Shown: positions 1-33,742 of the stretch, one piece after another
How the letters are laid out: every line of letters begins with the position of its first letter
Numbering within the stretch: the first letter of the stretch is position 1
Notes under the pieces: model-generated
Database searches by the model: none
What the model saw: only the letters and a program-made list of their open reading frames with translations
What the model was told of the DNA's origin: nothing
Position numbers and translations under genes: made by a program
From: an uncultured Subdoligranulum sp.
Lineage (GTDB): Bacteria; Bacillota; Clostridia; Christensenellales; CAG-314
Assembly: GCA_964612455.1 (NCBI GenBank)
Contig: CAZTCB010000005.1
Span: 1-50,961, forward strand
Direction of reading: 5' to 3'
DNA: 50,961 nt

Positions 1-14
1 TTTTCGTACAAGAG

Positions 15-8439: not shown

Positions 8440-8481
8440 GTTTCAGCTATACGTTTTAAGTAAAATACAAGGAGTAAAAAT

Positions 8482-8616: not shown

Positions 8617-8619
8617 AGC

Positions 8620-8943: not shown

Positions 8944-8944
8944 A

Positions 8945-9187
8945 ATGAAGTATATTTGTATCGCTTTGTTAAAACTTTATAAAGCGACGATAAGTAAAAT
9001 AAAACCAAAAACCTGTCGTTTTCAGCCGTCGTGTTCGGTATACTCGATGGAGAGTTTTTATAATCACGGATTTATAAAGGGGTTTTGGTTAACGGTAAAA
9101 AGACTCTTAAGGTGCAATCCGTTGTCGAAAGGCGGTTTGGATCCGACACCGTACAACTACAAGGGAGTTATTAAATGGTCAATTTAA
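8945..9187 (+). CDS. yidD: Membrane protein insertion efficiency factor YidD
   Basis: Motif CRFQPSCSVYSMES...NPLSKGGLDP. Start taken at MKYICI (the ORF-track start 8930 overlaps rnpA). Confidence 0.85.
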   Translation: MKYICIALLKLYKATISKIKPKTCRFQPSCSVYSMESFYNHGFIKGFWLTVKRLLRCNPLSKGGLDPTPYNYKGVIKWSI

Positions 9188-10497
9188 CGCAATTAATGAG
9201 CGTAGGTATGGACGCGGTAGTCACCACTCTTGAAAACTGGGGCGTTACCGGGCTGAATATCGATTTTGATTTTCAGGCGTCGGCAAACCTTATTTCAAAG
9301 TTGTTGATGTGGATATACGGATGGATGGGTAGTTACGGGTGGACGATAGTTTTGTTTACTCTCGTACTCAGACTGATTACGTTGCCTTTGGATTTTTGGC
9401 AAAAACTGTCAATGAAAAAAAACAGTAAGATAATGGAGGAAATAACTCCGTTTATGACGAAAATCGACAAGGCGTACGCGGACAATCCTCAGGCAGCCAA
9501 CGCCGAAAAGCAAAAGATAATGAAAAAATATCGTTACAATCCTTTTGCGTCGTGTTTACCGATGATTGTGACGATGGTTATTTTTATCGTAATGTTCAGC
9601 GGCCTCAACAACTGTAGCAGTGCGCTCAATATCAAGACGTATCAGGATATACAAGAGGCGTATCTGAGAGGATATTACTCCGTGATAACCGACGAAGCGA
9701 CAATAGCCGCACCCGTAACCGACGAAAACGGAGACGTGATAAAAAACGCGGCGGGCGAACCGACGACCTTGAGATATTTCGTAAATTGGAAAAACGAAAA
9801 AACCGACGACAACGCAAACGAATTTAGTGCAGAGGAATTAACCATTTTAAACGCAAGGTACGACGCCGTCACGCAACAAGCGGAAAAAACGGCAAAAAAA
9901 GAGGCGGTACTCAGGTTTAGTAGCAGCGGCGAAGGTTTTTTATGGATAAAGAGTTTGTGGCGCAGCGACAACTGGCAAAAAGTTTTGCCCGCGTCGGTAA
10001 CGAAATTTGCGAGTGCATTGTCGGGTAACACCGACGTGGCGGGGCTGACGAGCGAAAAAATATACGACAGCATATACGAGGCGTATACCAATCCCGAAAG
10101 TTGTTTCGACGTTGACGACGAGATAGAAGCGCAACAATTAAAACAGGTAAAAAAATCTCTCGGTTACGGTAGCGGAATGTGGAACGGTTTACTTATATTG
10201 CCGGCTCTCGCAATAGTGCTTACGTGGCTGACGACTAAAGTTTCCAACAAGAGTCAGGGTACTATGGGTACCGGAGCACAGTTGGAGTCGGCAAAGAGTC
10301 AACAAAAAACGATGACTTTTATAATGCCGATAATGATGGGTATATTTGCGTTGTTTTACTCGGCGGCGTTTGCGCTGTATCTCGTTGCGAGCAATATAAT
10401 CAATCTTTTGCTTAATCTCATCGAGATGCCGCTTGTCGAAAAAATAGCGGGAAAAACAAAAAGCGTAGTAAAAAAAGAAGCAAGTTATAGGAGATAA
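9175..10497 (+). CDS. yidC: YidC/Oxa1-family membrane insertase with an unusually long extracytoplasmic loop
   Basis: Contains LRLITLPL...QKL, FLWIKSLWRSD and a C-terminal basic tail. 440 aa, against my recollection of about 260-aa Firmicute YidC proteins. Confidence 0.88.
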   Translation: MVNLTQLMSVGMDAVVTTLENWGVTGLNIDFDFQASANLISKLLMWIYGWMGSYGWTIVLFTLVLRLITLPLDFWQKLSMKKNSKIMEEITPFMTKIDKAYADNPQAANAEKQKIMKKYRYNPFASCLPMIVTMVIFIVMFSGLNNCSSALNIKTYQDIQEAYLRGYYSVITDEATIAAPVTDENGDVIKNAAGEPTTLRYFVNWKNEKTDDNANEFSAEELTILNARYDAVTQQAEKTAKKEAVLRFSSSGEGFLWIKSLWRSDNWQKVLPASVTKFASALSGNTDVAGLTSEKIYDSIYEAYTNPESCFDVDDEIEAQQLKQVKKSLGYGSGMWNGLLILPALAIVLTWLTTKVSNKSQGTMGTGAQLESAKSQQKTMTFIMPIMMGIFALFYSAAFALYLVASNIINLLLNLIEMPLVEKIAGKTKSVVKKEASYRR

Positions 10498-21373: not shown

Positions 21374-21412
21374 AAAAAGCCACGCCGAGTTTAACCTCAA
21401 CGTGGCTTTTTT
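21374..21412. terminator. Bidirectional hairpin terminator inside repeat copy C
   Basis: AGCCACG (21378-21384) pairs with CGTGGCT (21401-21407). Inner GAG/CTC pairs. A5 upstream, T6 downstream. Confidence 0.65.
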
Positions 21413-21582
21413 ACTAAGGTTTATTAAATTTTTGTTTACCGAAATCCCGCCAAAAATCGAGATTTTTCCGTTTTCTCTTTCACCAAAGTTACGTATGAGA
21501 AAAAATATCCTTTCGCGAGGTTTTTGCGGGTGACGAAAGCGATTTTTACCGTGTTTTTCCGTCGTGTTTAAATTTTGCTCGT

Positions 21583-22473
21583 TCAGATTTTGCTCTTTAA
21601 ATCGTCCAGAGCGTTTGACAGCGCGGCAAAGAGTAGGGGCGAAAGACTTTCGCCGCGCAGAGTGCCGTCGACGCCGTTTTCGGCAAGCCATGCGTCTGCC
21701 GTCGCTTTTGTCGTTTTAAAATAGGAGGCGACGTTGTTGCATAGGGTTTTTCGCCGCTGAGAGAAAGCACAGCGGGTGATTTCTCTGAATGACGACCAAT
21801 CCCGCACGCCGAGGGGATTGTCGACGAAACGGCTCGTGACGACCGCACTGTCGACGTTGGGGACGGGATAAAACAAACTTCTGTCGATTACGCGGGTAAG
21901 CGTCGTTTGAGCCACGGAGGCGAGTGCGACGGTTATCGCGCCGTAGTCGGCTGTGTTTTCTTTGGCGACGAGTCTTTCGGCGACTTCTTTTTGCAAGGTG
22001 AGGGTGAGGCTTTTTATTTTTGCGCCGTGACGAACCCGCTCGATAAAGGAGGTTAGCACGGGAGCGGTGACGTAGTAGGGGAGATTGGCGACTACGGCGT
22101 AGTCGGAGCCGAGTTTGTCGGATATCTCGTCGTCGTCCGCGCGTAAAAAGTCTTTAAAAACTATTTCGACGTTGTTGAGGTCGGCAAGATTTTTTGAAAG
22201 CAGCGGCTTTAACGACGCGTCTATTTCGTACGCGACTACTTTTTTTGCGGCGGCAGACAGGTGACGGGTGAGCGCGCCCGCACCGGGACCGATTTCGAGA
22301 ACGGTGTCGTCGGCAGACAGCCCCGCGTCCGCGACAATGTCGGACAGCAACGCGCTGTCGGATAAAAAGTTTTGCCCGAATTGTTTTTTAAAAACATGGT
22401 CGCTATACGCCGCGTCGCGAGTATCGGTGCGTTTGCGCGCGGGGCGTTTGTCGTCGTTTCGTCCGTATTTCAT
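21583..22473 (-). CDS. rsmA: 16S rRNA (adenine1518/1519-N6)-dimethyltransferase RsmA/KsgA
   Basis: KKQFGQNFL and SAM motif VLEIGPGAGALT. Confidence 0.93.
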   Translation of the reverse strand: MKYGRNDDKRPARKRTDTRDAAYSDHVFKKQFGQNFLSDSALLSDIVADAGLSADDTVLEIGPGAGALTRHLSAAAKKVVAYEIDASLKPLLSKNLADLNNVEIVFKDFLRADDDEISDKLGSDYAVVANLPYYVTAPVLTSFIERVRHGAKIKSLTLTLQKEVAERLVAKENTADYGAITVALASVAQTTLTRVIDRSLFYPVPNVDSAVVTSRFVDNPLGVRDWSSFREITRCAFSQRRKTLCNNVASYFKTTKATADAWLAENGVDGTLRGESLSPLLFAALSNALDDLKSKI

Positions 22474-22543
22474 TTTTTTTACCTCGCGTCAATTGTATAT
22501 TAAATCCGGAGTATTGTCAACCCTAATTAAACGGGAAAGGGTA

Positions 22544-22572
22544 TTGACATATCCGACAGGGCGTGGTATAAT
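22544..22572 (+). promoter_or_regulatory. Perfect consensus sigma-A promoter with extended -10, driving the RF-like/helicase cluster
   Basis: TTGACA 22544-22549, 17-nt spacer ending in TGG, TATAAT 22567-22572. ATG at 22596. Confidence 0.8.
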
Positions 22573-22595
22573 GAACGGAGTATAAGGGGTAGTGT

Positions 22596-23480
22596 ATGCC
22601 GACGGAAAACATTGAAAAAGCGAAAACGTTGTTGAAAGAAACGCAGGCGCTTGACGACAAATATCTCGAGTTGTCAAGGCTGTCGGCTTATCCCGAAATC
22701 ATGGCGGACGCAACGTATATGCGTTTTTTAGCGAAGGAGCAAACGGCGCTAAAACCGCTACACGGGTGGCGACAAACTTTGGCGACGTTGGTAGAGGACG
22801 CCGAATTTTGCCTCTCGGAATCGAGTAAAGGCGGCAAGGAGCGCAGGTTTTTTGAAGAGGAGTTGGCTCAAATCGAAAAAAAAGCGGCACCCGTGTGCGC
22901 CGAAATAAAAAAATTTCTTGCCGACGGCGGCGAAATCGACCTGTACGGGTGCACGATAGAAATGTCGGGGGACGCGCGCGGGATAGTTGCGCTCAAGGAG
23001 GAGTTTTTTAAAACGGCGGAGGGCGTTCGTTGTCCGTTGATAGTCGTCAAAAATAGCATGACGGCGGGGGACGGGGGCTACGGATTGTTTAAGGAGCAGG
23101 GCGGACGGCACAAGTTTGTCTATTCCGTCGACGGCAGGCAGGCGTGCGGCGAGGTGCTGGTCGTCGTTTTACCCGATATCGTCGCCAAAAAGGCAGAGTG
23201 GAGCGAAAAAGACTTGCGCATCGATATTTATCATTCGTCGGGCGCGGGCGGTCAAAACGTCAACAAGGTGGCGAGTGCGGTGAGGATAACGCACTTGCCT
23301 ACGGGGATAGTCGTGAGTTGTCAGGAGGAGCGTTCGCAATTGTTTAATAAAGAACGCGCCTTTGCCGCGCTTGAAAAGAAACTTGCCGAAAAATACGGCG
23401 AAGAAGTCGCCGAAAAAAAAGACGAAATCCGCAAGCGGCAAAAAAACTCGGCGGGTTTCGTAGCAACGCACAAAATTTAA
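22596..23480 (+). CDS. Class-I release-factor paralog (PCRF-like N-terminus plus GGQ domain) lacking the codon-recognition elements
   Basis: GGQ at aa 218-220 in SSGAGGQNVNKVASAVRITHLPTGIVVSCQEERSQ. No PxT or SPF tripeptide and no GRIHTS-type segment. The protein ends about 75 aa after GGQ. Confidence 0.8.
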   Translation: MPTENIEKAKTLLKETQALDDKYLELSRLSAYPEIMADATYMRFLAKEQTALKPLHGWRQTLATLVEDAEFCLSESSKGGKERRFFEEELAQIEKKAAPVCAEIKKFLADGGEIDLYGCTIEMSGDARGIVALKEEFFKTAEGVRCPLIVVKNSMTAGDGGYGLFKEQGGRHKFVYSVDGRQACGEVLVVVLPDIVAKKAEWSEKDLRIDIYHSSGAGGQNVNKVASAVRITHLPTGIVVSCQEERSQLFNKERAFAALEKKLAEKYGEEVAEKKDEIRKRQKNSAGFVATHKI

Positions 23481-23502
23481 CTTTTTACGGACAGAGCGAT
23501 AC

Positions 23503-25911
23503 ATGCAGATATTGATAACGGTAGACACGACCGAAACGGTTTTGTCGGGAAAAAGCAGAATATTTAAAACGGGGCGTTTTGCGAAAGACACCCGCCGTAA
23601 AGGCGGTATCGACGACTTTGTGTCAAAGGTCGCCGAGGGCTTTTTACGGGCGGGGGAGTCGGAATTCTTTTTTGGCGAAAGCCGCGCAAAGAGTTTTTCG
23701 GCGACGACTACCGAGGGCGCGCACACGTTGTTTTTTAAAACGGGCACACAGATAAAGGGCAACGACGCTATAAACCCGACGGACTTTGTTTTTTTTGGGT
23801 ACGATGGCGAAAAAAATACGAAATCCGACGAGAGGTTTATCGCCTTTATGCGAAACAATCCGTCCTTTGCGGTGACGGTCGCCGACAGTGACGAAACTAC
23901 CGACGACGACGATTTTAACAAAGTGTATTCCGTCGTCGGCGGGGGCGGAGTCGGTTTTCCGCTGTTAAGCGACGAGCAAACGAAAATAGTGACGGGCGAG
24001 GAGGGCAATATCCTCGTACAGGGCGTAGCGGGGAGCGGTAAAACCAACGTGTGCGTCGACAAAATCATATATTGCGCTTGTCGGGAGTACGGGGGAAGGG
24101 TTTTGTACACCACCTACTCTCGGGGGCTGATTGTGGATACGAAAAACCGAGTCGCGGCTTTTCGCGACGCCGTCAGACGCCTTATCGACGAGTTTCGCGA
24201 CGGGAAAGTCGTTTTCGTCGGTACCGATTATAAAAAGGCGGTGGAAAACAAACTCGGTATTTTTTTGAGCGAGGACACGGTAGAGCGCATACGGGACAAG
24301 CTCATTCGGGTAGTTGACTTTCTCGACGAAAAAGTCGATTATTTTTTGCCTGAGGATTTGTACGAAAGGATAACGGGTAAACACGCGGATATCGTCGACG
24401 AAAGGTATTTCGTGTCGGAGTATGCCGAAAATATAAAAAACTATACTTTAGTCGGCAATCTCGAAAAAATAAAACAACTTTCGCTCGAGGTGGTGTTTAA
24501 AGAGATATTCGGGCTTGTTTACGGGAGCGCGGACGGCAATCCGTGTCTTTCGCGGGAGCAATATCGCGAAAAAAGGCGGGAGAGTTTTAGCGCGACGGAA
24601 ACGGATACGATATACACGGTTGCCGTCGACTACGGCAAGCACCTCGAAAAAAACGGAAAGACGGACAACAATTTTATTTGTCGCGAAATGCTTTCTTTGC
24701 CGTCGTTGCCAAAGTATTCTCTCGTCGTCGCGGACGAAGTGCAGGATTTTACCGAAATAAACCTCGTCTTTTTAAAGGCGATAGCGGTAAAAATGTTTTG
24801 CGTGGGCGACGGGCTGCAGATGATAAATCCGTCCTTTTTCAGCTTTGCCGCGTTGAAACGGATAATGTTTCAAAAAGACGTGACGGCGGTCAAACAACTC
24901 GTAAACAACTACCGCAATACCAAGCGTATAGAAGAAGTTGCGGACGCGCTGAGTGCCGTCAACGAAAAGATATTCGGCGTGCACAGTTTCGTTTTAAAAG
25001 GCAAGAGCGTAGAGGCGGATATACCGACGCAGACGGTGTTTGTCAGGGACGAAAACTTTGCGGAGCGCGTTGCGCGGGAAAATCCGGACAACCTTACCTT
25101 TATCGTCGGTAGCACCAAAAAGAAGGAATCGATAAAAAAAGCGTTGCCGTATCATGAGGTGTTGACCGTATCGGAGATAAAGGGACTCGAGCGAAACGCC
25201 GTCGTCATGATAGACGTTTTGTCGGACAACGCCGACGAATGGGCGGAACTGAAGCGACGCAGGGTAAACCGAAAGACGGCGGACGAAAACTCCGTGTATC
25301 GGTATTATTTCAACCTGTTTTACGTGGGCGTGACGCGTGCCGGTCAGTACCTGTACGTTGCGGAAAGCAATCCGCCCGAACAGTTTGAAGAGTTTTTTAA
25401 AAGCGAGTTTACCGTGGCGACGGCGAAAGACGCGGTAAAAATGCTATCGGAGATTTCTTCCGTGATGGCGGTAGACGACGTCGAGATGAAGGAGCGCATA
25501 GAGCGGTTTCTGGCTTTCGGGCAGTATGAAAACGCGCGCTTTGCGGCACAAAAGATAGCGGACGGGTACGAACGAAACCTGCAATTGTCTCGCGTGGACA
25601 CGTACGAAAAATACGTAGGCAAAGGCGATTATACGAGAGCGGGGATCGAGTTGTGGAAAGCGGGCTTGACCAATGACGCACGTCGACAATTGGTCGTTGC
25701 CAACCAAAAGGGGTTGGTGGCATTGCTTGACGAGGGACTGGCGCAGGGCAAGAAAAAATTTGACGCCGACGTCGTGACGCTTTTGCCGCGTATTTCGTCG
25801 GACGACGGGGTACGGGATGCGGTCAAGGCATTGCTTGACGAGGATTTGGCGGAATTGACCAAACGGCAGGAAGATATAGAAAAACTTTTTATCGCAAAGA
25901 GAGGGCAGTAA
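23503..25911 (+). CDS. SF1 UvrD/Rep-like helicase with about 165 aa of unrecognised N-terminal domain and about 200 aa of helical C-terminal extension
   Basis: Motif I GVAGSGKT, motif II VVADEVQDF, NYRNT, EIKGLERNAVVM, motif VI YVGVTRAGQYLYV. The start is uncertain: weak SD at 23503, and an alternative Met at 23848. Confidence 0.82.
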   Translation: MQILITVDTTETVLSGKSRIFKTGRFAKDTRRKGGIDDFVSKVAEGFLRAGESEFFFGESRAKSFSATTTEGAHTLFFKTGTQIKGNDAINPTDFVFFGYDGEKNTKSDERFIAFMRNNPSFAVTVADSDETTDDDDFNKVYSVVGGGGVGFPLLSDEQTKIVTGEEGNILVQGVAGSGKTNVCVDKIIYCACREYGGRVLYTTYSRGLIVDTKNRVAAFRDAVRRLIDEFRDGKVVFVGTDYKKAVENKLGIFLSEDTVERIRDKLIRVVDFLDEKVDYFLPEDLYERITGKHADIVDERYFVSEYAENIKNYTLVGNLEKIKQLSLEVVFKEIFGLVYGSADGNPCLSREQYREKRRESFSATETDTIYTVAVDYGKHLEKNGKTDNNFICREMLSLPSLPKYSLVVADEVQDFTEINLVFLKAIAVKMFCVGDGLQMINPSFFSFAALKRIMFQKDVTAVKQLVNNYRNTKRIEEVADALSAVNEKIFGVHSFVLKGKSVEADIPTQTVFVRDENFAERVARENPDNLTFIVGSTKKKESIKKALPYHEVLTVSEIKGLERNAVVMIDVLSDNADEWAELKRRRVNRKTADENSVYRYYFNLFYVGVTRAGQYLYVAESNPPEQFEEFFKSEFTVATAKDAVKMLSEISSVMAVDDVEMKERIERFLAFGQYENARFAAQKIADGYERNLQLSRVDTYEKYVGKGDYTRAGIELWKAGLTNDARRQLVVANQKGLVALLDEGLAQGKKKFDADVVTLLPRISSDDGVRDAVKALLDEDLAELTKRQEDIEKLFIAKRGQ

Positions 25912-25914
25912 ATA

Positions 25915-26625
25915 ATGGATAACAAAGAAGAATTTGCATCGCTCGCGGCGGCGTTTAAGGGATATCGCGATTTGCTGACGCCCGTGCAGGCTCATTTGCG
26001 CGAGCTGGTAGTCGGGTACGACTTGTTGCAAAACGACCTTAAAAAGCTCGACGAGTCTATCGGCGGCGGCGAAAAGCTCGACAGGATTTATCAAACGATA
26101 GTCGACCAAAATCGAAAAAACGGCGAAATAAGCGAAAAAATCGACACTTTTCTCCAAATCGGCGACAAGTACGCCCGACAAATGACCGCTTTAAGCGACG
26201 TGTTTGAAAAAACGGAGCGCAAACTCGAAGAGATGGACGAAATCGAAGCAAGGGCGCGGGAGCAACTGGCTCGGCTCGACCGACTGACGGAAGAAAAAAA
26301 GATAAATTACGACGTCCGAGAGCTTGAAAAAACGATAGACGGGTACAACGAAAACGTAAAAAAAATAAGTGACTTTATCAACAGGGATGTTGCCGCGTCG
26401 CTTGCCGACAACGCCAAAAAGATAGAGACGGTCAGAGTCAACAGCGAGAGTCTGGCAAAGACGGTGTCGGCGGAAAGCGAAAGCATAGACAAGCTCCTCG
26501 CGTCTTTTTCGGCCACCAACGCATTGTTAAAGACGCTCGTCGAAAAAGGAGATGTGGACAAAGAGTATCTGTACGATTTGTTGGACGGCTGGGCAAACCA
26601 ACGGCGGGTAAAAATAAAAAAGTAG
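25915..26625 (+). CDS. Coiled-coil protein of unknown function (236 aa)
   Basis: Heptad-like E/K/L-rich sequence. Starts 3 nt after the helicase stop. Confidence 0.7.
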   Translation: MDNKEEFASLAAAFKGYRDLLTPVQAHLRELVVGYDLLQNDLKKLDESIGGGEKLDRIYQTIVDQNRKNGEISEKIDTFLQIGDKYARQMTALSDVFEKTERKLEEMDEIEARAREQLARLDRLTEEKKINYDVRELEKTIDGYNENVKKISDFINRDVAASLADNAKKIETVRVNSESLAKTVSAESESIDKLLASFSATNALLKTLVEKGDVDKEYLYDLLDGWANQRRVKIKK

Positions 26626-26635
26626 AGAGACGACT

Positions 26636-28528
26636 ATGGCAGACAACGAGTTAAACCAATTGTACGAGGCTATCAAAAACGACGATTGCGAGACTTTTTA
26701 TTCTTTGACTAAAAACACGCGCCTCGCGTCCACATGTTTCGGTCGGTTTCCCGTGTTGTCGCTCATGTATTTGTACGGCAGCGACAAACTCGTAAAAAAT
26801 TTTGAAAAAAACCTGCTCGAGATATCGGCGTACGCTTTCGCGGACGAAACGGAAGAGTCCTATCTTTTGTTTAAAGAAAAGGCGAAAAAGTGTCTGAGGT
26901 TGTACGTCGACAAAGGGGCGGTCGTTTCGCCCCTCGAAATGTTACTCATACTCGGACGGGGAGCGCATTTTTGGCATATTTATCCTTCGGTTGCCAAAAA
27001 CATGACGATAAAAAACAACGTAAACGTCATTTGCAACATGATATACGGTGCTCCTCCGAAAAAGAAAGACGGAAGATTGGCGGCACCCGTATTGCCGCTA
27101 AAAAGGAAAAATCGCCTGTTGGCAACTTTGGCGTTGTTAATGAGCGGGGTGTTTGTCTTAGGGTCGGTGTTCGGCATAATTTTCGGCGTTGCGACCAACG
27201 GAAAAAGCCAAAATACGCCGTACGTCGTGGCGGGCGAAAACAGTCTCGTGCAAGCGTTGAATGCCGCGCAGGAGAGATATTATGCGGCACGGGGGGAAGG
27301 AAAGAAATCAAAAACGTATATAAAGCTGACCAAAGATATAACGGTGGACGACCTGTCGGGGTTTACCGAACACCTTTTTGCCGATATCGACGGCAACGGG
27401 TACACGATAACCGTCAAGCAGACGTTGACTGAGAGTTTGTTCGGTTATATAGTGGGCAGCGTCACCGACACGACTTTCGTTTTGACCGTCGACGCGACGA
27501 TAAAGGACTACACGGGGGTGTTTGCCACGGTATCGATGCAGGACGCTTTTGTCAAAAACTGTACTTTCGTAGTGGGCGGAAAGATATCGGTAGAGCAAAA
27601 TTTTGAATACTCGTCCGACTATTACCCCGTGGGCGTCGCAATAGGCGCAAACGGAGGTAAAGTGGTCGGGAGCAACGTGATTGCTTCGGATTTGACGGTG
27701 ACGGGGTACGAGCACGCCAATTTTGTGGTCGGCGGCATAGCGGGCGTAAACGAGGGCGAAATAACCGACAGCACGGCGAGTATCGCCGCAAGCGTCGATA
27801 CGGTTGATTTCGGCGGTATAGCCGCTTTCAATCAGTCGGCAGGCAAAATATCAAACTGTCGCAGCGAGCTTAAATCGGTTTGCGTGACGACGTCTGCAGA
27901 GGACTGGTCGATAAACGTCGGCGGAGCGTGTTACTCCAATCTTGCGGAAATTTCGTCATGTTCGGTATCGGGAAACCTGACCGTCGAGTCTTTGGCTGCG
28001 ACGGGGGTATTTGTCGGCGGTGTGACGGTGTACAATTACGGCGTATTGTCCGAGTGCTCAAACAAAGCGGACGTCGGGATAAAAACCGTTGCGACGTCGG
28101 TATACGTTGGCGGCGTCGCGGTGTTTAACAACGAAGAAAACGACGATTATTCCGACGGAAAGATTGCCGACAGTCACGCCGACGGAAGCGTTTCCGTCAA
28201 TCTCGTCGGCGAAAACAACCGTCTTTGCGTTATCGGCGGAGTGTGCGCGCAAAACTCGGCGGAAATGAAAAACAATTATTTTGACGGAAAAATAACGACT
28301 AACGCTACGGACACGGCAAAAATCGGCGGAGTAGCGGCGGGGTTGAGCGCGAGGGTTGTTTCAAATCCGACGGAGTATCTGGCGGAAAACTATTACACCG
28401 ACGACCGTTACGCGGGAGTGGCGTTTGAGTTTGACGCCGACGGGCGCATTACGCCGCTGGACAAAGCCGACGGGATAATTTTTTGCACGGAAGAGCAATT
28501 GAAAACCAAGGAGGTATACGGTCAATGA
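26636..28528 (+). CDS. Single-pass membrane protein: about 165-aa cytoplasmic N-domain, a TM helix, and an extracytoplasmic GLUG-like beta-helix repeat region
   Basis: TM helix LLATLALLMSGVFVLGSVFGIIFGV. Repeated units include VGGIAGVNEGEITDS, FGGIAAFNQSAGKISNC, VGGVTVYNYGVLSEC and IGGVCAQNSAEMKNN. Confidence 0.75.
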   Translation: MADNELNQLYEAIKNDDCETFYSLTKNTRLASTCFGRFPVLSLMYLYGSDKLVKNFEKNLLEISAYAFADETEESYLLFKEKAKKCLRLYVDKGAVVSPLEMLLILGRGAHFWHIYPSVAKNMTIKNNVNVICNMIYGAPPKKKDGRLAAPVLPLKRKNRLLATLALLMSGVFVLGSVFGIIFGVATNGKSQNTPYVVAGENSLVQALNAAQERYYAARGEGKKSKTYIKLTKDITVDDLSGFTEHLFADIDGNGYTITVKQTLTESLFGYIVGSVTDTTFVLTVDATIKDYTGVFATVSMQDAFVKNCTFVVGGKISVEQNFEYSSDYYPVGVAIGANGGKVVGSNVIASDLTVTGYEHANFVVGGIAGVNEGEITDSTASIAASVDTVDFGGIAAFNQSAGKISNCRSELKSVCVTTSAEDWSINVGGACYSNLAEISSCSVSGNLTVESLAATGVFVGGVTVYNYGVLSECSNKADVGIKTVATSVYVGGVAVFNNEENDDYSDGKIADSHADGSVSVNLVGENNRLCVIGGVCAQNSAEMKNNYFDGKITTNATDTAKIGGVAAGLSARVVSNPTEYLAENYYTDDRYAGVAFEFDADGRITPLDKADGIIFCTEEQLKTKEVYGQ

Positions 28529-28746
28529 AAAAAGACGGAGCGTATATCGCGTTTTTAATAGGCGCGGCGACGGCTTTCGTTGCCGACGTGATTTTTGCCG
28601 TCTGTCTGGCGGCGGGCTTGACGAGGATGTTTGGCGGCAACGTCCCCGCGATAGAGGGGCTTGTATTTTGTTCGGCGGTCGTGCTCGTCGTCAATATCGC
28701 CTGCGTCGTGCTCACGATTTTTTACTTTAAACAAAGAAAAGAATAG
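28525..28746 (+). CDS. Small two-TM membrane protein (73 aa), translationally coupled to the preceding gene
   Basis: ATGA start/stop overlap at 28525-28528. Two hydrophobic helices. Confidence 0.6.
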   Translation: MKKDGAYIAFLIGAATAFVADVIFAVCLAAGLTRMFGGNVPAIEGLVFCSAVVLVVNIACVVLTIFYFKQRKE

Positions 28747-28861
28747 AGGTTCGGATAATCGGTCGGCGGGGAAAACGTAGGGACGACAAAAACGAGCTTT
28801 TTGTTTCGTTCGTCGGTTTTTTTTACGTCATCGGCGCAGACGGTAAATAGCCGAAAAAGTA

Positions 28862-28890
28862 TTGACTTTAATCAAAAAGTGTGTTATCAT
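28862..28890 (+). promoter_or_regulatory. Promoter of the first small lipoprotein gene
   Basis: TTGACT 28862-28867, 17-nt spacer ending in TGT, TATCAT 28885-28890. Confidence 0.6.
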
Positions 28891-28932
28891 CAAAACGTAT
28901 ATCGGCGACAAGGTCGATATCGGGGAGGCAAT

Positions 28933-29376
28933 ATGAAAAAGACGTTTTTTGTTAACGCGATTGCGATACTTTTGCTGATTTGTACGGCGGCTGTTTTGGT
29001 TGCCTGCGGCGGCACGGATAAAAAACGCGACGAGCGCGTCGCAGAGTACGAGAAAGACGGTTACGTCGTATCGGTTAAAGACGACGCTTTCGTGGACGAG
29101 CACAACACTGCTTACGGCGGGAAGAAAGCCGACACCTTAAAATGGTGTTTCGTCGCCACGAAAAACGAAGTGTTAAACGATGACGGCGCGCATTACACCA
29201 ATTACGTCGTGACGGTGTATTATTTCGACAAAATCAGTTGCGCCGAAAACTTTGGCAAAATGAAAAACGCGGAGGAGCCGACGAGCATGTCGGGGTGCGA
29301 GTATTCGTGTCGCATCGATTGGGAAAACAATCTCGTCACCGTTACCGAGGGATTTACCTACGCTATCGACGCGTAA
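28933..29376 (+). CDS. Small lipoprotein of unknown function
   Basis: Signal peptide with lipobox LVAC|G. Start at MKKTFF after GGAGG. The ORF-track start 28801 is an upstream extension. Confidence 0.75.
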   Translation: MKKTFFVNAIAILLLICTAAVLVACGGTDKKRDERVAEYEKDGYVVSVKDDAFVDEHNTAYGGKKADTLKWCFVATKNEVLNDDGAHYTNYVVTVYYFDKISCAENFGKMKNAEEPTSMSGCEYSCRIDWENNLVTVTEGFTYAIDA

Positions 29377-29396
29377 AAGTATTTTCGGTCAAAAAC

Positions 29397-29425
29397 TTGT
29401 CAAAACGCTTAAAGTGTGCTAAAAT
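29397..29425 (+). promoter_or_regulatory. Promoter of the second small lipoprotein gene
   Basis: TTGTCA 29397-29402, 17-nt spacer ending in TGC, TAAAAT 29420-29425. Confidence 0.6.
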
Positions 29426-29454
29426 AACTTTTACTGAAATAAAGGAGTACGAAA

Positions 29455-29868
29455 ATGAAAAAGATAATCAGAGCTTTACTTTGTGTCGTTGCGGTCGTCT
29501 GTCTGACCATGGCTTTGTGCGGTTGCAGTGCAAATAAAGAAGATTACGTAAGCGACTATAAGGCGAAAGGGTACGCGATTGCCGATTTCGATTCCACCAA
29601 GATGGCGGAGCTCAGCAACTACTGCGACGTTTACGTCAACGATATCGACGCGGTGGAGTGGGCTGTATACGGGCAAAAAGAAGGTAGCGACGATTGGGTG
29701 GAGATTATCGGATTTAAATCCGCCAAGCGTGCAAGTCAATATAGCGTCACCACCAGATATAAAGATTTGGAGAAGTCTTATACCGACCCCGTTACGGGCG
29801 AAAAAGTTTCCGTTCACAAGTCGGTCAAGGGAAAAGTCTTTATTTTAGAGGTCGTTTACGAAAAATAA
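29455..29868 (+). CDS. Small lipoprotein, distant paralog of 28933-29376
   Basis: Lipobox ALCGC. Shared motif Y-x-K-x-G-Y just after the lipobox. Confidence 0.75.
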   Translation: MKKIIRALLCVVAVVCLTMALCGCSANKEDYVSDYKAKGYAIADFDSTKMAELSNYCDVYVNDIDAVEWAVYGQKEGSDDWVEIIGFKSAKRASQYSVTTRYKDLEKSYTDPVTGEKVSVHKSVKGKVFILEVVYEK

Positions 29869-29904
29869 TTTTTCGTAGCGGAAAAAGGTCTTAAAACGAA
29901 AAAA

Positions 29905-29957
29905 AGAGTATGAATACGGAGACGAGTCCGTTTGTTCATACTCTTTTATTTTTTTCT
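29905..29957. terminator. Bidirectional terminator between the lipoprotein and tetR genes
   Basis: AGAGTATGAA...TTCATACTCT outer stem with inner ACGGA/TCCGT. A-run upstream, T-run downstream. Confidence 0.8.
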
Positions 29958-29986
29958 GACGGCGCACGTGCCGCGCGATAAAAAAA

Positions 29987-30568
29987 TCAAATAGGTCTGA
30001 CGCAGTCGATTATTATTTTTTCGACAAACTCGATTTCGTCGGCGCAACCGCCGTTTATCCACTCGTTTATTATTGCGGTAATGCCGTTGAGATAATATTT
30101 AATCATATAGTTTGCCGTTTTTTCGTCTACGTCAAATCTGTCGAATATCGGTTTAAATACATGTCGGTTGAGCGCGACAAACTTTTTGTCGGAGTGCATG
30201 AGCGTCCGATGCCTGACGGCAACCTGATGAAGGACTTTGTTGTCCCTTATAAACTCGAGGTAAGGCGTCAGGTACTCGGGGGTGATTAAAATCAACTCTT
30301 GTTTGGAGCAAGTCGCGAGTTTTTTACAAAAAGAAGCGGAGTTGACTGTAAAATACTCGAGAAAACGCTTGTTGGTGTTGTCTATGCACTCTTGCAACAG
30401 GTCGTCTATCGTTTCGTAATGGAGATAAAACGTCGAGCGATTGACGCCGGCTTTTTCGCAAATTTCCTTTACCGTGACGTAATCGAAATCTTTTTTTTGC
30501 AACAGCTCTACGAGAGCCTGATTCATCAACAGTGCGGTATTGTAGTATTTGCTTTCCGATTTATTCAT
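29987..30568 (-). CDS. TetR/AcrR-family transcriptional regulator
   Basis: N-terminal HTH region TVKEICEKAGVNRSTFYLHY. Confidence 0.88.
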   Translation of the reverse strand: MNKSESKYYNTALLMNQALVELLQKKDFDYVTVKEICEKAGVNRSTFYLHYETIDDLLQECIDNTNKRFLEYFTVNSASFCKKLATCSKQELILITPEYLTPYLEFIRDNKVLHQVAVRHRTLMHSDKKFVALNRHVFKPIFDRFDVDEKTANYMIKYYLNGITAIINEWINGGCADEIEFVEKIIIDCVRPI

Positions 30569-30593
30569 GAGTCGTCTCCTTTGTCGACGAGCG

Positions 30594-30953
30594 TCAGTTT
30601 TCTTCTTCTTCGCTTATTTCTTTGGCTAAACGCAGGATATCCGAGCCGTATTTGTTTTTGCCTCTTTCTCTCAGTTTTTTATAGATAGGGTAGTTTACGC
30701 AGCAGCCGACGATACCGACGATACCTATGGCGATACCGACAATCGTTGCGCCTACGCCGCTGCCTATGACGCCCATAGAGAGACACATGCCCGTGCCGAG
30801 CACGAGAGAACTTGCTATGCCGAAGGTATAAGCAAATATGTTTGCTCCTTGTTTGGCTTTGGCGTCGAGTTTTTTTAGTTGTCTTACTTTGGTGGTTTCT
30901 TTTTTAGAATACTCGTTTGCGATTTGTTCCGCGTAGATTTTATCTGTGTTCAT
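30594..30953 (-). CDS. Small membrane protein (119 aa, two Gly-rich TM helices), upstream of tetR in the same operon
   Basis: Start MNTDKIY after GGAGGA. The ORF-track start 30992 is an extension. Confidence 0.65.
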   Translation of the reverse strand: MNTDKIYAEQIANEYSKKETTKVRQLKKLDAKAKQGANIFAYTFGIASSLVLGTGMCLSMGVIGSGVGATIVGIAIGIVGIVGCCVNYPIYKKLRERGKNKYGSDILRLAKEISEEEEN

Positions 30954-31092
30954 TTTTTTCGTCCTCCTTGTTTTCACGCTTGTAGTATACACGAGGTAAA
31001 GGCGAAAGTAAACGACAAAAAAGCCCGAAAACGTCGATTTGAAAAAGAAAAAGCCCGTTTAAACGGTATGTGTGACGATTATTCGGCTTTTT

Positions 31093-32274
31093 TTAATCTA
31101 TCCGCAAAACGACAAACTTGAGATACAATCCCTCTTGCGAGGTCAGCGACGGGGCGTGGCAGGGCGATTGGGTTTTTATTTCCATGAGTCTTGCCGTCCG
31201 TCCGCTTGCCTCCACTGCCTCGCGGACGGTTTTTAAAAATAAATTGAGGTCGACGTAGTGGGAGCAACTGCAGGTGACAAGATATCCGCCGCGATTGACG
31301 AGCTTTATCCCCGCCAGATTGATATCGCGGTATCCCCTTACCGCGTCTGCGACTCTGTCCGCCGTCTTGGTAAATGCGGGAGGATCGAGTATAACCACGT
31401 CAAACGTTTTGCCCGACGCGCGGTAAAACCTCAACAACTCAAAGACGTCCGCTTTGACGACGGCGACGTTGGATAATGCGTTTAAATCGGCGTTTTTTAT
31501 CACAGAGTCGAGGGCGACTTGCGAAACGTCCGCCGCGATTACCGATTTTGCGACCGTCGCCGCGTTTATCGAAAAACCGCCGCAGTTGCAAAAACAGTCC
31601 AGGACCGTTTTGTTTTTGCAATAGGTTTTTATTGCGAGACGGTTAAATTTTTGGTCGAGAAAGTACCCCGTCTTTTGTCCTTTTGCCACGTCTACCTCAA
31701 GCGACAGTCCGTTTTCATGTACGATTACGTCGGAGGGCAGTTTTCCGTACAGCACGCCTTCGGCTTGCGGCAAACCTTCTTTTTCGCGTACGGCGACGTC
31801 GCTGCGCTCGTAAATACAGACGGGTTTAAACACGTCTGCGAGGACGTCGACGAGCATTTTTTTTCGTAAATCCATGCCGAGGGATAAAAACTGAACGGAC
31901 AGCACGTCGGCGTATTTGTCGACGATAAAGGCGGGCAGATTGTCCTCCTCGGCAAATACCGCGCGATAACAATCGTCCCCTGTCCCGTCAAATACGTCTT
32001 CTCTCAATGCCTTTGCTCGTTTAACCCGCTCGACAAAAAACTCTCGGTCGTCGGCTTGGTTTTCGTCTCGGATAAAAATGCGCACGAGGATTTTTGATAA
32101 AAAATTGATATATCCTTTGCCGACAAATTTTCCGTCGGTGGTAAAAACGGTTGCCAAGCTGCCGTTTTTTTCTTTGTCGGGGTTTTCCGTCCTGTCGACC
32201 TCGTTGGCAAAAACCCTGCAACTGTCGAGAGGCGAGTGTCTTTTTGCAGTTTTTTTCAATATGACTTTTATCAT
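31093..32274 (-). CDS. Class I SAM-dependent rRNA methyltransferase (RlmI/RlmK-like, PUA plus MTase)
   Basis: VLDCFCNCGGFS (SAM motif I) and VILDPPAF (motif IV). Start at MIKVILKK after AGGAAA. Confidence 0.82.
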   Translation of the reverse strand: MIKVILKKTAKRHSPLDSCRVFANEVDRTENPDKEKNGSLATVFTTDGKFVGKGYINFLSKILVRIFIRDENQADDREFFVERVKRAKALREDVFDGTGDDCYRAVFAEEDNLPAFIVDKYADVLSVQFLSLGMDLRKKMLVDVLADVFKPVCIYERSDVAVREKEGLPQAEGVLYGKLPSDVIVHENGLSLEVDVAKGQKTGYFLDQKFNRLAIKTYCKNKTVLDCFCNCGGFSINAATVAKSVIAADVSQVALDSVIKNADLNALSNVAVVKADVFELLRFYRASGKTFDVVILDPPAFTKTADRVADAVRGYRDINLAGIKLVNRGGYLVTCSCSHYVDLNLFLKTVREAVEASGRTARLMEIKTQSPCHAPSLTSQEGLYLKFVVLRID

Positions 32275-32428
32275 CGTCGGATTTCCTTTTTTTGTCGTCT
32301 TTTTTATTACTTTACTATTTTTCGTCCGTTTTGTCAACGATAGCGACCTTCAGGCGCGCAAAAAACCCAAAAAACAAAAAAACGCGCAAGGTCGTTTAAA
32401 AAACGTCAAAAGGGGCAATAATCGACCT

Positions 32429-32869
32429 ATGAAAAAAGCGTTTGGATTTTTTTTATCGACGGTTGTCGTCGCGGCGGCGTGTTTCGCCGCACCGAGGTCT
32501 CCGTTGGCTTGTTTTAAGGGTGACGAGGCGGAGGTGTATTATACGTACGCCGTAAAGACGAGCTACCCGTCCGTAGAGTTGGGACAAGGCTGTCTCGTGC
32601 GCTGTCCCGTCACGTGTATTCAAGAGTTGCCGCAGGATTACTTTGCCGTGAGCGTGACGACTACCCAATCGGAATGGCAAAAAGCAAAAAAAATCCTGCG
32701 CGTGCGGGAGTTAAAGACGGAAGAAGGAGAGGATTTTTTTGACAGTTTGTGTTACAGCCCCGCGGTGAAAGGCGGCGTGCGCGTCGACGGAATGACGATA
32801 AACATGCAGGTTGCATTGACGGGGGACGGGGTAAAAATCGGTTTTCCCTTTATAGTCGGTTCTTTTTAA
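32429..32869 (+). CDS. Secreted hypothetical protein (146 aa)
   Basis: N-terminal signal-like segment MKKAFGFFLSTVVVAAACFAAP. The ORF-track start 32078 lies antisense to the methyltransferase gene. Confidence 0.6.
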   Translation: MKKAFGFFLSTVVVAAACFAAPRSPLACFKGDEAEVYYTYAVKTSYPSVELGQGCLVRCPVTCIQELPQDYFAVSVTTTQSEWQKAKKILRVRELKTEEGEDFFDSLCYSPAVKGGVRVDGMTINMQVALTGDGVKIGFPFIVGSF

Positions 32870-33067
32870 AAAAAGCCATACGGGTAACGAATAACCTTTA
32901 CCGAAAGCGGCGACGGAAAACTCTTTCGCTTTACGTGTCGGTAAAACGACTAACGTGGTCTGTTTAATAAAAACACCCTGACGGGTGGCAAAATAACAAA
33001 AACAAGGTTTACTTTTTTTTAAACGGTAAACAATAAAACCAACAAAAAATATGGAGGACGAAAAAAA

Positions 33068-33742
33068 ATGGAAAAAACCAGCAAATTTGGCGGGGTAATA
33101 AGGTTTTTAAAGAGAAACCTCGCAATAATCATCGTTGTGGCGTGTGCTTTGGCGGTCATAGGTATCGCATTGGCGATAAAGTCGTCTCAGGTACAGCCGG
33201 ATATAGACGTGCCGCCCGTGACGGGGGACGGGGACGCGTCGGAGCCGTCGGGTACGGTTAATCCCGACGTGCCGGTAGTCAAGCCCGACGACAATCAGCC
33301 GAGCGAACCGACGCCGACGACCAAGGACTACGTTTTACCCGTTGCAAGCTATACGATAGGTATGGATTACTCCCGCGACAGCGAGTACGTGTTGGTCTTT
33401 AAAAAGACGCTCAACGAATACAGCGTCCACAACGGTATCGACTTTTTGGCGGAAGAAGGCACGGCTGTCGTCGCCGTCAACGACGGTACGGTTACGGCGG
33501 TGACCAACGATTTCGGTATGGGGTACACGGTAGAAATTACCCATGACGACGGTTACGTTTCGTATTACAGCAGTCTCGGCGAAAACGTCAGCGTCAGCGT
33601 CGGCGACGTCGTCGAGTGCGGACAGACCATCGGTTGCGTGGCAAACACGGCGACCTACGAAAACCTCGAGGGCAGTCACCTGCACTTTGAGTTAAAAAAA
33701 GACGGCGAGTACGTCAATCCGAGACAAATATTGGACGTTTAA
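33068..33742 (+). CDS. M23-family metallopeptidase with an N-terminal membrane anchor
   Basis: HNGID (HxxxD) and HLHFE (HxH) zinc motifs. TM helix near the N-terminus. Confidence 0.9.
   Translation: MEKTSKFGGVIRFLKRNLAIIIVVACALAVIGIALAIKSSQVQPDIDVPPVTGDGDASEPSGTVNPDVPVVKPDDNQPSEPTPTTKDYVLPVASYTIGMDYSRDSEYVLVFKKTLNEYSVHNGIDFLAEEGTAVVAVNDGTVTAVTNDFGMGYTVEITHDDGYVSYYSSLGENVSVSVGDVVECGQTIGCVANTATYENLEGSHLHFELKKDGEYVNPRQILDV

Follow-up and report, generated by a model that had tools for sequence, protein, structure and literature searches.

Structure of the gene cluster

The analysed window is a stretch of 50,961 nucleotides of DNA from an uncultured Subdoligranulum sp. (contig CAZTCB010000005.1). 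Between positions 22544 and 28823 of its forward strand, it contains five co-directional ORFs, preceded by a promoter and followed by a probable terminator. The ORFs encode a release factor (RF)-like protein (22596-23480, 294 aa), a helicase (23503-25911, 802 aa), a coiled-coil protein (25915-26625, 236 aa), a membrane protein with a GLUG-type region (26636-28528, 630 aa) and a small membrane protein, starting from the ATG at 28525 and ending at 28746 (73 aa). The first four are separated by gaps of 22, 3 and 10 nt, while the start of the last overlaps the preceding stop codon in an ATGA at 28525-28528. A purine-rich RBS precedes each start.

The promoter, at 22544-22572, is of the sigma-70 type with an extended -10 (TTGACA-17-TG-TATAAT); it matches the consensus at 12 of 12 positions and is the best site found in the region 21400-29600. 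A divergent promoter for ksgA, matching at 11 of 12 positions, lies at 22520-22492. The unit probably ends with an intrinsic terminator, an imperfect hairpin followed by GGTTTTTTTT at 28783-28823, with a run of 8 T; a new promoter, for the next gene, is found at 28862-28890. The hairpin is weak: it was not picked up by a strict scan for terminators, and the 86-nt stretch folds no better than its random shuffles (z = -0.15).

The five ORFs, the gaps, the ATGA overlap, the promoter and the weak hairpin with its T-run had been described in an earlier note, made from the sequence alone, and its observation is confirmed. Two of its statements need to be qualified. The first is the absence of internal signals: a scan for consensus matches lists a few within the cluster, such as a promoter-like site matching at 10 of 12 positions at 27425 and a terminator-like one at 28565, inside the last gene. 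Their number is only modestly above that obtained with shuffled sequences (11 promoter-like sites against 5.8 +/- 2.4 expected, and 22 terminator-like sites against 13.6 +/- 3.3), and none lies in an intergenic gap, so that the statement is reasonable, although not proven. The second is the "GLUG-like" label, which is below threshold for the copy in the window (E 0.026), but is supported by its relatives: 9 of 51 members hit Pfam Glug (best 2.5e-15), and the family profile hits the GLUG beta-helix of PDB 3n6z at 2e-6.

Conservation of the cluster

The earlier note gave equal weight to a functional link among the five genes and to the chance packing of unrelated genes, and indicated the conservation of the gene neighbourhood as a way to check this. 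This comparison was performed on GTDB species genomes, where 205 relatives were found, and the best 80 loci, each from a species-representative genome, were analysed in detail. The carriers are uncultured gut and rumen Clostridia, in which the genes are kept together in over 80 species. The helicase gene is followed by the coiled-coil gene in 79 of the 80 loci, and by the membrane protein gene in 73; the remaining loci run out of contig after the coiled-coil gene or are not resolved. The RF-like gene lies directly upstream of the helicase in 69 of 76 assessable loci; of the 11 loci where it is missing, 4 are contig ends. Order and orientation are kept at a helicase identity of only 40-47%, and junctions are overlapping or nearly so, with medians of -1, -4 and +3 nt. 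Only these four families recur across the loci: flanks differ between lineages, and no flanking gene family is found in more than 8 of the 80. An ORF of 60-114 aa (typically 73-75 aa) with predicted TM segments starts within about 25 nt of the stop codon of the membrane protein gene, mostly overlapping it, in 41 of 65 assessable loci; one more lies 105 nt downstream. The conserved core is composed of helicase, coiled-coil and membrane protein, whereas the RF-like gene and the 73-aa gene are frequent but not universal members, which corrects the earlier description of the cluster.

The RF-like gene also co-occurs with the helicase when it is not linked to the operon. All five genomes retrieved because their operon lacks the RF-like gene carry one of the same family elsewhere (HMM E 1e-87 to 1e-96), and co-occurrence was observed in 15 of 15 genomes checked. 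Within the family to which the window belongs, 5 of 82 genomes have the helicase, and exactly these five have an operon-linked RF-like third gene. Two poor-quality genomes (G080 and G092) also show a third RF hit without the helicase; the pair listed for G080 covers in both cases only residues 154-282, at 47% identity, and is read here as fragments or duplicates of canonical RF genes, although this was not checked further.

All five genes are under purifying selection. At unsaturated dS values (0.3-0.4), dN/dS is 0.15 for the RF-like gene, 0.09 for the helicase, 0.05 for the coiled-coil protein, 0.17 for the membrane protein and 0.2-0.35 for the small protein, to be compared with 0.15 for the neighbouring ksgA.

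The genome is small (1.26 Mb) and its intergenic gaps are short everywhere, as would be expected if unrelated genes had been brought together by genome compaction. This reading is, however, refuted by the order kept across 80 species with non-conserved flanks, and by the matching phyletic profiles. The interpretation given in the earlier note, an undescribed and functionally linked cluster possibly involved in ribosome/RNAP rescue or linked to the envelope, is thus partly supported: the neighbourhood data come out clearly for linkage, while the function is still inferred. Co-transcription, also named there as a point to verify, was not examined, as no RNA runs hold this sequence.

The encoded proteins

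The RF-like protein hits the Pfam RF-1 domain, including the GGQ motif, at E 3e-30, and, weakly, the PCRF domain. It is the third RF gene of a genome which also contains prfA, next to prmC, and prfB. In an alignment of 61 sequences of the family, the GGQ block, with H233, R246 and N251, is invariant, while the decoding loop is deleted: the PxT loop and the alpha5 tip, which read stop codons, are deleted or not conserved. Domain 1 is retained, but the copy in the window is truncated at its C-terminus and lacks most of domain 4, so it may bind the ribosome differently or not at all. The family profile matches RF1 over its full length (E 1e-81), and a single branch, with an SH-aLRT of 98, separates the family from RF1 and RF2; it is a fast-evolving offshoot of RF1.

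The helicase gave only weak hits to UvrD-type SF1 profiles, but all SF1 motifs (GSGKT, DEVQD, GDxxQ, NYR, KGLER, VGVxRA) are invariant in 53 sequences. An AF2 model (pLDDT 85.9) was compared with known structures by Foldseek, and the top hits were UvrD, PcrA and Rep, at E 1e-12 and 12-14% identity. The protein is a divergent SF1A (UvrD/PcrA/Rep-like) ATPase/helicase, with an alpha/beta N-terminal domain (residues 1 to about 150) and a helical-repeat C-terminal domain (about 640-802). The N-terminal domain occurs only in this family among 1.84 billion representatives. Its best fold matches, which are ribosomal A-site binders of the RelE/HigB fold and Cami1 on the 70S, are not significant (E 0.1) and have no sequence support.

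The coiled-coil, or helical-bundle, protein shows 36-44% identity among loci, with 15 invariant columns, and only generic coiled-coil matches in Pfam and PDB. The 630-aa protein has a conserved cytoplasmic N-terminal domain (about 1-155), which holds the invariant residues (G36, R37 and others), a single TM segment (160-178) and a variable extracellular GLUG-type beta-helix; the ectodomain is 600-1000 aa long, at 22-29% identity. The sequence KRKNR, just before the TM segment, indicates an N-in topology. The 73-aa protein is a hairpin of two TM segments (5-23 and 37-55), 53% identical to the copy of the same genus, with a dN/dS of 0.1-0.35.

Possible functions

The comparisons described above show that the genes are inherited and kept together under selection, that the RF-like protein keeps its catalytic domain without the elements reading stop codons, that the helicase keeps every ATPase motif, and that the large membrane protein combines a conserved cytoplasmic head with a fast-evolving ectodomain. 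The five genes are one operon, and very likely a real functional module. What follows is, in contrast, inferred. The operon probably encodes a membrane-tethered complex, able to end translation without a stop codon, for peptide release or ribosome rescue. In this view, the cytoplasmic head of the membrane protein, stabilised by its two-TM partner, and the coiled-coil protein would dock the SF1A motor at the membrane; the motor would use ATP to engage a stalled or targeted translation complex, by pulling on mRNA or on an RNAP-mRNA-ribosome assembly; the dedicated RF-like factor would then enter the A site and hydrolyse peptidyl-tRNA without reading a codon, freeing or aborting the ribosome. That the RF-like protein is a codon-independent peptidyl-tRNA hydrolase acting on the ribosome is considered slightly more likely than not, whereas the whole scheme, although preferred to its alternatives, is only tentative. 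There are precedents both for a helicase rescuing ribosomes, HrpA (PMC11419001), and for codon-independent RF paralogs with partners, PrfH-RtcB (PMC1586002, PMC9223846). Ribosome contact, hydrolase activity, complex formation and even co-transcription have not been shown, no biochemical or expression data exist, and other observations do not favour the scheme. The core of the module stays together in lineages where the RF-like gene has moved away, so this factor may be an accessory rather than the point of the system; the genome already has tmRNA, SmpB and RqcH, so there is no obvious need for another rescue path; and nothing explains why a rescue system should have a large, fast-evolving extracellular domain.

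One alternative is an envelope-triggered conflict or anti-phage system, where the variable extracellular beta-helix senses phage attachment or envelope damage, the signal passes through the cytoplasmic head and the coiled-coil protein to the helicase, acting on invading nucleic acid, and the codon-blind RF-like protein is the effector, aborting translation globally or on phage mRNAs, as in abortive infection. The ectodomain evolves fast and varies in size, genomic contexts are variable, a search with PADLOC, as a defence-system scan had been suggested beforehand, gave weak GajB-like hits, only at superfamily level, and weak DRT-helicase hits, and the distribution is patchy in some lineages: the 5 carriers out of 82 in the window's own family belong to two genera, whose copies are only 44% identical, and in another genus the module is carried by 17 of 28 genomes. 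An unleashed codon-independent RF would plausibly be toxic, but this is an inference. On the other hand, the module is single-copy and essentially universal in whole families and genera, being found in 14 of 14 high-quality genomes, across 4 genera, of one family, and in every listed genome of two genera (22 and 6, respectively), which is unusual for defence systems. PADLOC gave no system-level match, and no hit at all for the RF-like, membrane and small proteins. The flanks are housekeeping genes, rather than defence islands or mobile elements, no relatives were found in 2.9 million viral contigs, and no nuclease or other classical effector is present. This alternative is considered unlikely, although not excluded.

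A DNA- or RNAP-directed machine is judged somewhat less likely still, although it also remains open. In this case, the UvrD/HelD-like motor would clear stalled RNA polymerase or protein-DNA blocks at membrane-attached (transertion) sites, or serve DNA repair or uptake, and the RF-like protein would only deal with the ribosome trapped behind the block, or have a non-ribosomal role. The best sequence and fold matches are indeed to PcrA, UvrD, Rep and to the RNAP-recycling factor HelD, and not to RNA helicases; the core is kept together without an adjacent RF-like gene in 6 loci; and blocked RNAP is known to trap coupled ribosomes, which then need rescue (PMC13584721). However, identity to DNA helicases is only 12-14%, all NCBIfam equivalog cut-offs are missed by more than 10-fold, the N-terminal domain is alpha/beta and not the secondary-channel coiled coil of HelD, and the 2B region looks strongly reduced in the model, from which this is inferred. 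Strict genome-level co-occurrence with an RF paralog is also hard to explain by a purely DNA-directed role.

Finally, the RF-like factor could terminate or recode translation of the membrane protein of its own operon, or of a few special mRNAs, the other genes being its cargo and not its partners. Translational coupling is seen throughout the operon, and a similar idea was the first proposal for PrfH (PMC1586002). This possibility is considered very unlikely, since no conserved recoding signal or in-frame oddity was seen in the ORFs, the RF-like gene can be unlinked from the operon, and no replacement residues are conserved in the decoding loop, which argues against a new codon specificity.

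Comparison with known systems

The earlier statement that the cluster does not match any known operon or defence system also holds: besides the PADLOC results, literature searches found nothing, and the combination has not been described before.

PrfH (RFH), acting with RtcB2 in the rescue and repair of ribosomes damaged by colicin E3-type cleavage (PMC1586002, PMC9223846), is likewise an extra class-I RF paralog with GGQ and without canonical stop-codon reading, present beside RF1 and RF2 and encoded in an operon with a dedicated partner enzyme. PrfH is, however, short (about 200 aa) and lacks domain 1, whereas this family keeps domain 1 and is RF1-sized (about 335 aa; 294 aa in the window), and the partner is an SF1 helicase plus membrane proteins, not the RNA ligase RtcB. 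The score against TIGR03072 is 77 bits, with a cut-off of 167, and the family profile matches PrfH (1e-37) far less well than RF1.

ArfB / ICT1 / C12orf65 and ArfA-RF2 perform a GGQ-dependent, stop-codon-independent peptide release on non-stop ribosomes, which is the activity inferred here. ArfB is a lone GGQ domain with a basic C-terminal tail, working without partners (NF006718: 44 bits against a cut-off of 100), and ArfA recruits canonical RF2, while this family is a separate offshoot of RF1 with a conserved operon. RF1 itself (PrfA, TIGR00019) is the closest sequence relative, at about 35% identity; the profile match covers domains 1-4 in most family members, and the GGQ domain is nearly identical in its key residues. 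The RF-like protein differs by the loss of the PxT loop and alpha5 tip, scores 134 bits against a cut-off of 423, and is not encoded next to prmC.

UvrD, PcrA, Rep and HelD share with the helicase the SF1A core fold and all ATPase/translocase motifs, but not its N- and C-terminal domains. HrpA, an E. coli DEAH helicase which splits collided ribosomes, and the eukaryotic eRF1-eRF3-Upf1 are precedents for an ATP-driven helicase working with the termination or rescue machinery on problem ribosomes. The analogy is of logic only and no homology is implied: HrpA is an SF2 enzyme, neither paired with an RF paralog nor membrane-linked, and Upf1 is SF1B and eukaryotic. As for Gabija GajB and other UvrD-like defence helicases, and for Zorya, a membrane complex with a helicase, the resemblance consists of weak, partial hits to the GajB model (E 1e-14) and of an overall Zorya-like logic of membrane anchor plus cytoplasmic motor; GajA, ZorAB-like proteins and a nuclease are absent, and the distribution in several families is core-gene-like.

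Organization of the gene cluster

The RF-like gene (22596-23480, 294 aa), the helicase gene (23503-25911, 802 aa), the coiled-coil gene (25915-26625, 236 aa), the gene for the large membrane protein, BIG (26636-28528, 630 aa), and that for the small membrane protein, SM (28525-28746, 73 aa), are co-directional. They are separated by 22, 3 and 10 nt, and then joined by an ATGA overlap; each start is preceded by a purine-rich ribosome-binding site. A perfect extended -10 promoter (TTGACA-17-TG-TATAAT) is located at 22544-22572, back to back with an 11/12 sigma-70 promoter on the minus strand (22492-22520), which serves the divergent ksgA/rsmA gene (21583-22473). The two promoters are 24 nt apart and may compete or be co-regulated. 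The last gene is followed by an imperfect hairpin and eight T's at 28783-28823. Consensus matches internal to the cluster are few, fall inside coding sequence and are near chance numbers. The arrangement described in the earlier note, five compactly packed genes behind one promoter, is therefore confirmed.

Two small genes follow the cluster (28934-29376 and 29455-29868), each with its own promoter-like site (28862-28890 and 29397-29425, respectively). Both are conserved with it in the same-genus relative (66-75% identity), but they are not part of the module in other lineages. The G+C content of the first 10 kb of the window (1-10000) is 38-42%, against 47-52% in the rest, with a change of skew; this may be a foreign or differently evolving segment.

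The window is contig 5 of a 1.26-Mb draft genome, 97.8% complete. Records carrying related loci are labelled Christensenella, Christensenellales or Clostridia, and come from gut and rumen metagenomes. The genome has a normal prfA, next to prmC, and a normal prfB, so that the RF-like gene is a third paralog. The longest ATG-started GGQ-containing ORF at the prfB locus (L002, on contig C15 of this genome) is only 272 aa, although the open frame spans 350 aa, which is consistent with the usual +1 programmed frameshift in prfB. SmpB and RqcH are also present, as is tmRNA: ARAGORN (-m) found none in any of the 53 contigs, whereas Infernal with RF00023 identified a full-length tmRNA at 123 bits (contig C20, 22255-22627), so that the ARAGORN result is a false negative for this lineage. 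The idea that the cluster replaces missing rescue systems is rejected for this genome.

Conservation of the gene neighbourhood

Conservation of the neighbourhood across related genomes had been proposed in advance as the test of linkage between the five genes. The same genes, in the same order and with the same flanks, were found at 53-77% protein identity in one other species of the genus and in metagenome contigs. At larger distances, the helicase has hundreds of full-length relatives at 40-47% identity. A scan of one genome per GTDB species identified 205 relatives, of which the best 80 loci, all from metagenome-derived genome bins and none from a cultured strain, were analyzed. The coiled-coil gene follows the helicase in 79 of 80 loci, and the large membrane protein follows in 73 of 80; the other loci run out of contig after the coiled-coil gene or are not resolved. 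The RF-like gene lies directly upstream, on the same strand, in 69 of 80. Of the 11 loci without an upstream RF-like gene, four are contig ends, one has it divergent, and six truly lack it at that position. Median junctions are -1, -4 and +3 nt, which indicates translational coupling. A small ORF (60-114 aa, typically 73-75 aa) with predicted TM segments starts at, or within about 25 nt of, the stop of the membrane-protein gene in 41 of 65 assessable loci; one more lies 105 nt downstream.

In order to look for a conserved extra partner, all flanking ORFs were clustered. None was found: only the families described here recur, and the next most common flank family occurs in 8 of the 80 loci. Contexts range from ksgA/gltX in the window to metH/dnaE or mnmA elsewhere.

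The phyletic profile was then examined. In the window's own family (f1), 5 of 82 genomes have the helicase, and exactly those five have the operon-linked third RF gene. Two low-quality genomes, labelled G080 and G092, also list a third RF hit without the helicase. The two G080 hits shown both cover only residues 154-282 at 47% identity and were read, without further verification, as fragments or duplicates of canonical RF genes. Of the six genomes whose operon starts at the helicase, five were retrieved, and all still carry an RF-like gene of the same family elsewhere (HMM E 1e-87 to 1e-96). RF-like and helicase genes thus co-occur in 15 of 15 genomes checked.

In one of these five genomes (L109:6431-13797, the genome of locus L027), the RF-like gene lies convergent just after the membrane-protein gene, and in another genome (L080:5844-6833) it lies divergent just upstream of the helicase; in both it is still adjacent after local inversions. 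In two others (L107:6346-9629 and L111:6603-9884, the genomes of loci L028 and L024) it lies next to argG/argH, and its stop overlaps (ATGA) the gene for a 546-aa beta-helix protein, GLAA-B-type glycoside-hydrolase-like, which is followed by an MBL-fold gene. The translational coupling is odd, but this is probably an unrelated neighbourhood.

Selection was evaluated at unsaturated divergence (dS 0.3-0.4). The dN/dS ratio is 0.15 for the RF-like gene, 0.09 for the helicase, 0.05 for the coiled-coil protein, 0.17 for the membrane protein and 0.2-0.35 for the small protein; the housekeeping neighbour ksgA gives 0.15.

Clean insertion or deletion boundaries were sought in same-genus genomes lacking the cluster. 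In one such species (locus L105, G004:C4:58000-74000, compared with window 22473-33068), ksgA is followed directly by an inverted homolog of window ORF 33068-33742. About 10.6 kb is absent or moved, comprising the operon, two lipoprotein genes, tetR, a small membrane protein and a PUA-methyltransferase, and not just the five genes, so that the comparison is uninformative. A single transcript, also named beforehand as a criterion, was sought in public sequencing runs, but only four DNA gut metagenomes, and no RNA runs, hold the sequence. On the neighbourhood data, the possibility that unrelated genes are merely packed together, to which the earlier note gave equal weight, is refuted. The interpretation given in that note was partly supported, in that the linkage holds while the function is inferred.

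Distribution

In a sample of the order, 40 of 401 genomes and 13 of 173 genera carry the cluster. In one family (f26), carriers are 26 of 28 genomes, 14 of 14 high-quality ones, in all 4 genera. In a second family (f35), carriers are 52 of 81, with every listed genome of genera g75 and g52, 17 of 28 in genus g90, and none in several genera. The five carriers in the window's own family belong to two genera, whose copies are only 44% identical to each other. One genome (G467) shows two helicase copies with identical scores on two contigs (C1:134977-137337 and C15:8204-10564); its contamination estimate is 6%, and this is probably an assembly or binning duplicate rather than a true second copy. 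No relatives were found in viral contigs. The cluster therefore behaves like a lineage-specific, mostly vertically inherited and dispensable module, with some transfer or repeated loss.

Features of the encoded proteins

Across 61 members of the RF-like family, the SxGAGGQNxNK block and H233, R246 and N251 are invariant, and much of domain 3 matches canonical RF1. When aligned to the genome's own RF1 (RVPETESQGRIHTS), the PxT loop is shortened, with no conserved position, and the alpha5 tip is largely deleted. The family profile aligns to RF1 structures over the full length (E 1e-81), while RF2 scores 1e-66, PrfH 1e-37 and ArfB 1e-11. In a quick maximum-likelihood tree, one branch (SH-aLRT 98) separates all RF-like sequences from RF1+RF2. 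The RF-like tip branches are long, with a median of about 0.5 and up to 1.66 substitutions per site, against mostly below 0.1 (maximum 0.49) for canonical RF1. Most members are about 335 aa and keep a recognisable domain 4 (F/Y-D ... T-D-x-R), whereas the window's subfamily (294 aa) ends just after the first strand of domain 4 and has further deletions in domain 2; it is still under purifying selection.

In the helicase, all SF1 motifs (Walker A, DExx, GDxxQ, YR, KGLE and VxxTRA) are invariant in 53 sequences. The AlphaFold model is good (pLDDT 85.9) and shows the two-RecA-domain SF1A fold; by Foldseek it matches UvrD, PcrA and Rep best (E 1e-12, probability 1.0, 12-14% identity), then HelD and Upf1-type enzymes. 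The C-terminal 160 residues are helical repeats. The 150-aa N-terminal domain (model pLDDT 90) has a mixed alpha/beta fold and no significant structural match. Its top Foldseek hits are the RelE/HigB-fold toxins HigB2 and RelE, and ribosome-bound Cami1, at E of about 0.1 (probability 0.82, TM 0.6 relative to RelE). No support came from sequence: hhalign against E. coli RelE, with a sequence not taken from a database record, gave a probability of 0.3%, and no Pfam hit was found, so that relationship to the ribosome-dependent toxins is left undecided and is retained only as a lead. The domain seems to occur only in this helicase family; stand-alone homologs were sought among 1.84 billion representative proteins, and all 94 hits look like full-length family helicases or fragments of them, judging from their lengths and positions.

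The coiled-coil protein is conserved (36-44% identity, 15 invariant columns), but Pfam and PDB profile searches returned only generic coiled-coil matches, such as ATG17, MCP and designed bundles, which were considered compositional. The large membrane protein has a conserved cytoplasmic head, carrying invariant G36 and R37, and a single TM segment, preceded by KRKNR, which indicates N-in topology. The extracellular GLUG-type beta-helix ranges from about 600 to 1000 aa, at 22-29% identity. Evidence for GLUG repeats (PF07581) is divided: the window copy is below threshold (E 0.026, 15.3 bits against 20.5), whereas nine of 51 relatives pass (best 2.5e-15) and the profile hits PDB 3n6z at 2e-6, which does not settle the matter for the window copy. 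The small protein is a predicted 2-TM hairpin with basic ends.

Possible function

The sequence data show an active-looking GGQ factor without codon readers, an active-looking SF1A motor with private accessory domains, an adaptor-like coiled coil, a membrane anchor with a conserved cytoplasmic head, tight operon coupling, and strict co-occurrence. What is inferred from them is a membrane-tethered complex, in which the motor would engage a stalled or targeted translation assembly, and the RF-like factor would then hydrolyse the peptidyl-tRNA without reading a codon. Precedents exist for each half. Codon-independent RF relatives with partners are represented by PrfH-RtcB (PMC1586002, PMC9223846), ArfB and ArfA-RF2, and a helicase that rescues collided ribosomes by HrpA (PMC11419001). 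The scheme is the preferred one, but it is tentative. There is no experimental or expression evidence; the nearest relatives of the helicase act on DNA or RNAP; the core formed by helicase, coiled-coil and membrane protein keeps together where the RF-like gene has moved away; nothing explains the large, variable ectodomain; and tmRNA/SmpB and RqcH are already present in the genome. A bolder version, considered doubtful but compatible with the data, is a previously unknown kind of machine acting on translation from the membrane. The bitopic envelope protein and its 2-TM partner would anchor the coiled-coil adaptor and the SF1A motor, which would seize jammed assemblies at the membrane, such as ribosomes stuck on the translocon or whole RNAP-mRNA-ribosome 'transertion' complexes. 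It would then hand them to a dedicated, codon-blind fifth family of bacterial class-I release factors, beside RF1, RF2, ArfB and PrfH, which would cut the nascent chain loose; the extracellular beta-helix would let envelope state tune this activity.

A DNA- or RNAP-directed machine, possibly resolving blocked transcription-translation-insertion complexes, is an alternative, although an unlikely one. Also unlikely, if slightly less so, is an envelope-triggered defence system, with the RF-like protein as a translation-aborting effector. Patchiness in some lineages, the variable ectodomain and weak GajB-like hits favour it, while core-like distribution elsewhere and housekeeping flanks disfavour it, as does the scan for defence systems that had been suggested as a check: PADLOC gave only partial GajB/DRT-helicase and SMC-like coiled-coil hits, and no system. 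Should this reading be right, the RF-like protein would represent a new abortive-infection effector type, based on premature peptide release. Translation control specific to the operon is considered very unlikely, and chance packing less likely still.

Bacteria end translation without a stop codon through tmRNA, ArfA-RF2, ArfB, PrfH-RtcB and RQC. A release-factor paralog hard-wired to a helicase motor and to membrane proteins would add a new branch to ribosome rescue and quality control, and would be the first bacterial case of an RF relative paired with an SF1 helicase; the pairing recalls, by analogy only, eRF1 with Upf1 in eukaryotes. Since the operon is core-like in whole families of abundant but uncultured gut and rumen Clostridia, it probably matters for their physiology. 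Both the GGQ factor and the ATPase are easy to assay, and the defined gene set can be moved into a model Firmicute.

Comparison with known systems

The operon is real, conserved and undescribed; the earlier note, too, had matched it to no known operon or defence/rescue system. No paper in the library searched links an RF paralog to a helicase, a membrane protein or a defence system, and the broad RF survey PMC6514570 does not mention helicases at all. Codon-independent release or rescue factors with partners are already known; a categorically new, membrane-coupled translation-surveillance machine is considered doubtful.

Comparison with Gabija showed only partial GajB-model hits (best 8.9e-15 over 69 residues), and no GajA-like hit, the OLD-family nuclease of that system, among the five proteins. 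Curated families were compared by means of their equivalog cut-offs. The RF-like protein has the GGQ motif within an RF-1 domain (Pfam RF-1, 3e-30), but lacks the PxT 'anticodon' loop and the alpha5-tip GxGGxE that read UAA/UAG, and scores 134 bits against 423 for RF1 (prfA, TIGR00019) and 131 against 400 for NF001859. It scores 77 bits against 167 for PrfH (TIGR03072), a short protein lacking domain 1 and encoded next to rtcB; here domain 1 is retained (PCRF hit over residues 20-127, with the profile aligning from RF1 residue 13), and the neighbours are a helicase and ksgA, not RtcB. It scores 44 bits against 100 for ArfB (NF006718), a stand-alone GGQ domain with a basic C-terminal tail, matching only the GGQ stretch 197-232, and it also has RF domains 1 and 2. 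As for the helicase, the best scores against named SF1A enzymes are 31-35 bits, against cut-offs of 419-1144. With HelD (NF041464) the score is 34.5 bits against 419, and the alpha/beta N-terminal domain is not the coiled-coil domain by which HelD enters the RNAP secondary channel. The RF-like protein is thus best described as a separate RF1-derived family, and the helicase as an SF1A member, but not an ortholog of any named enzyme.
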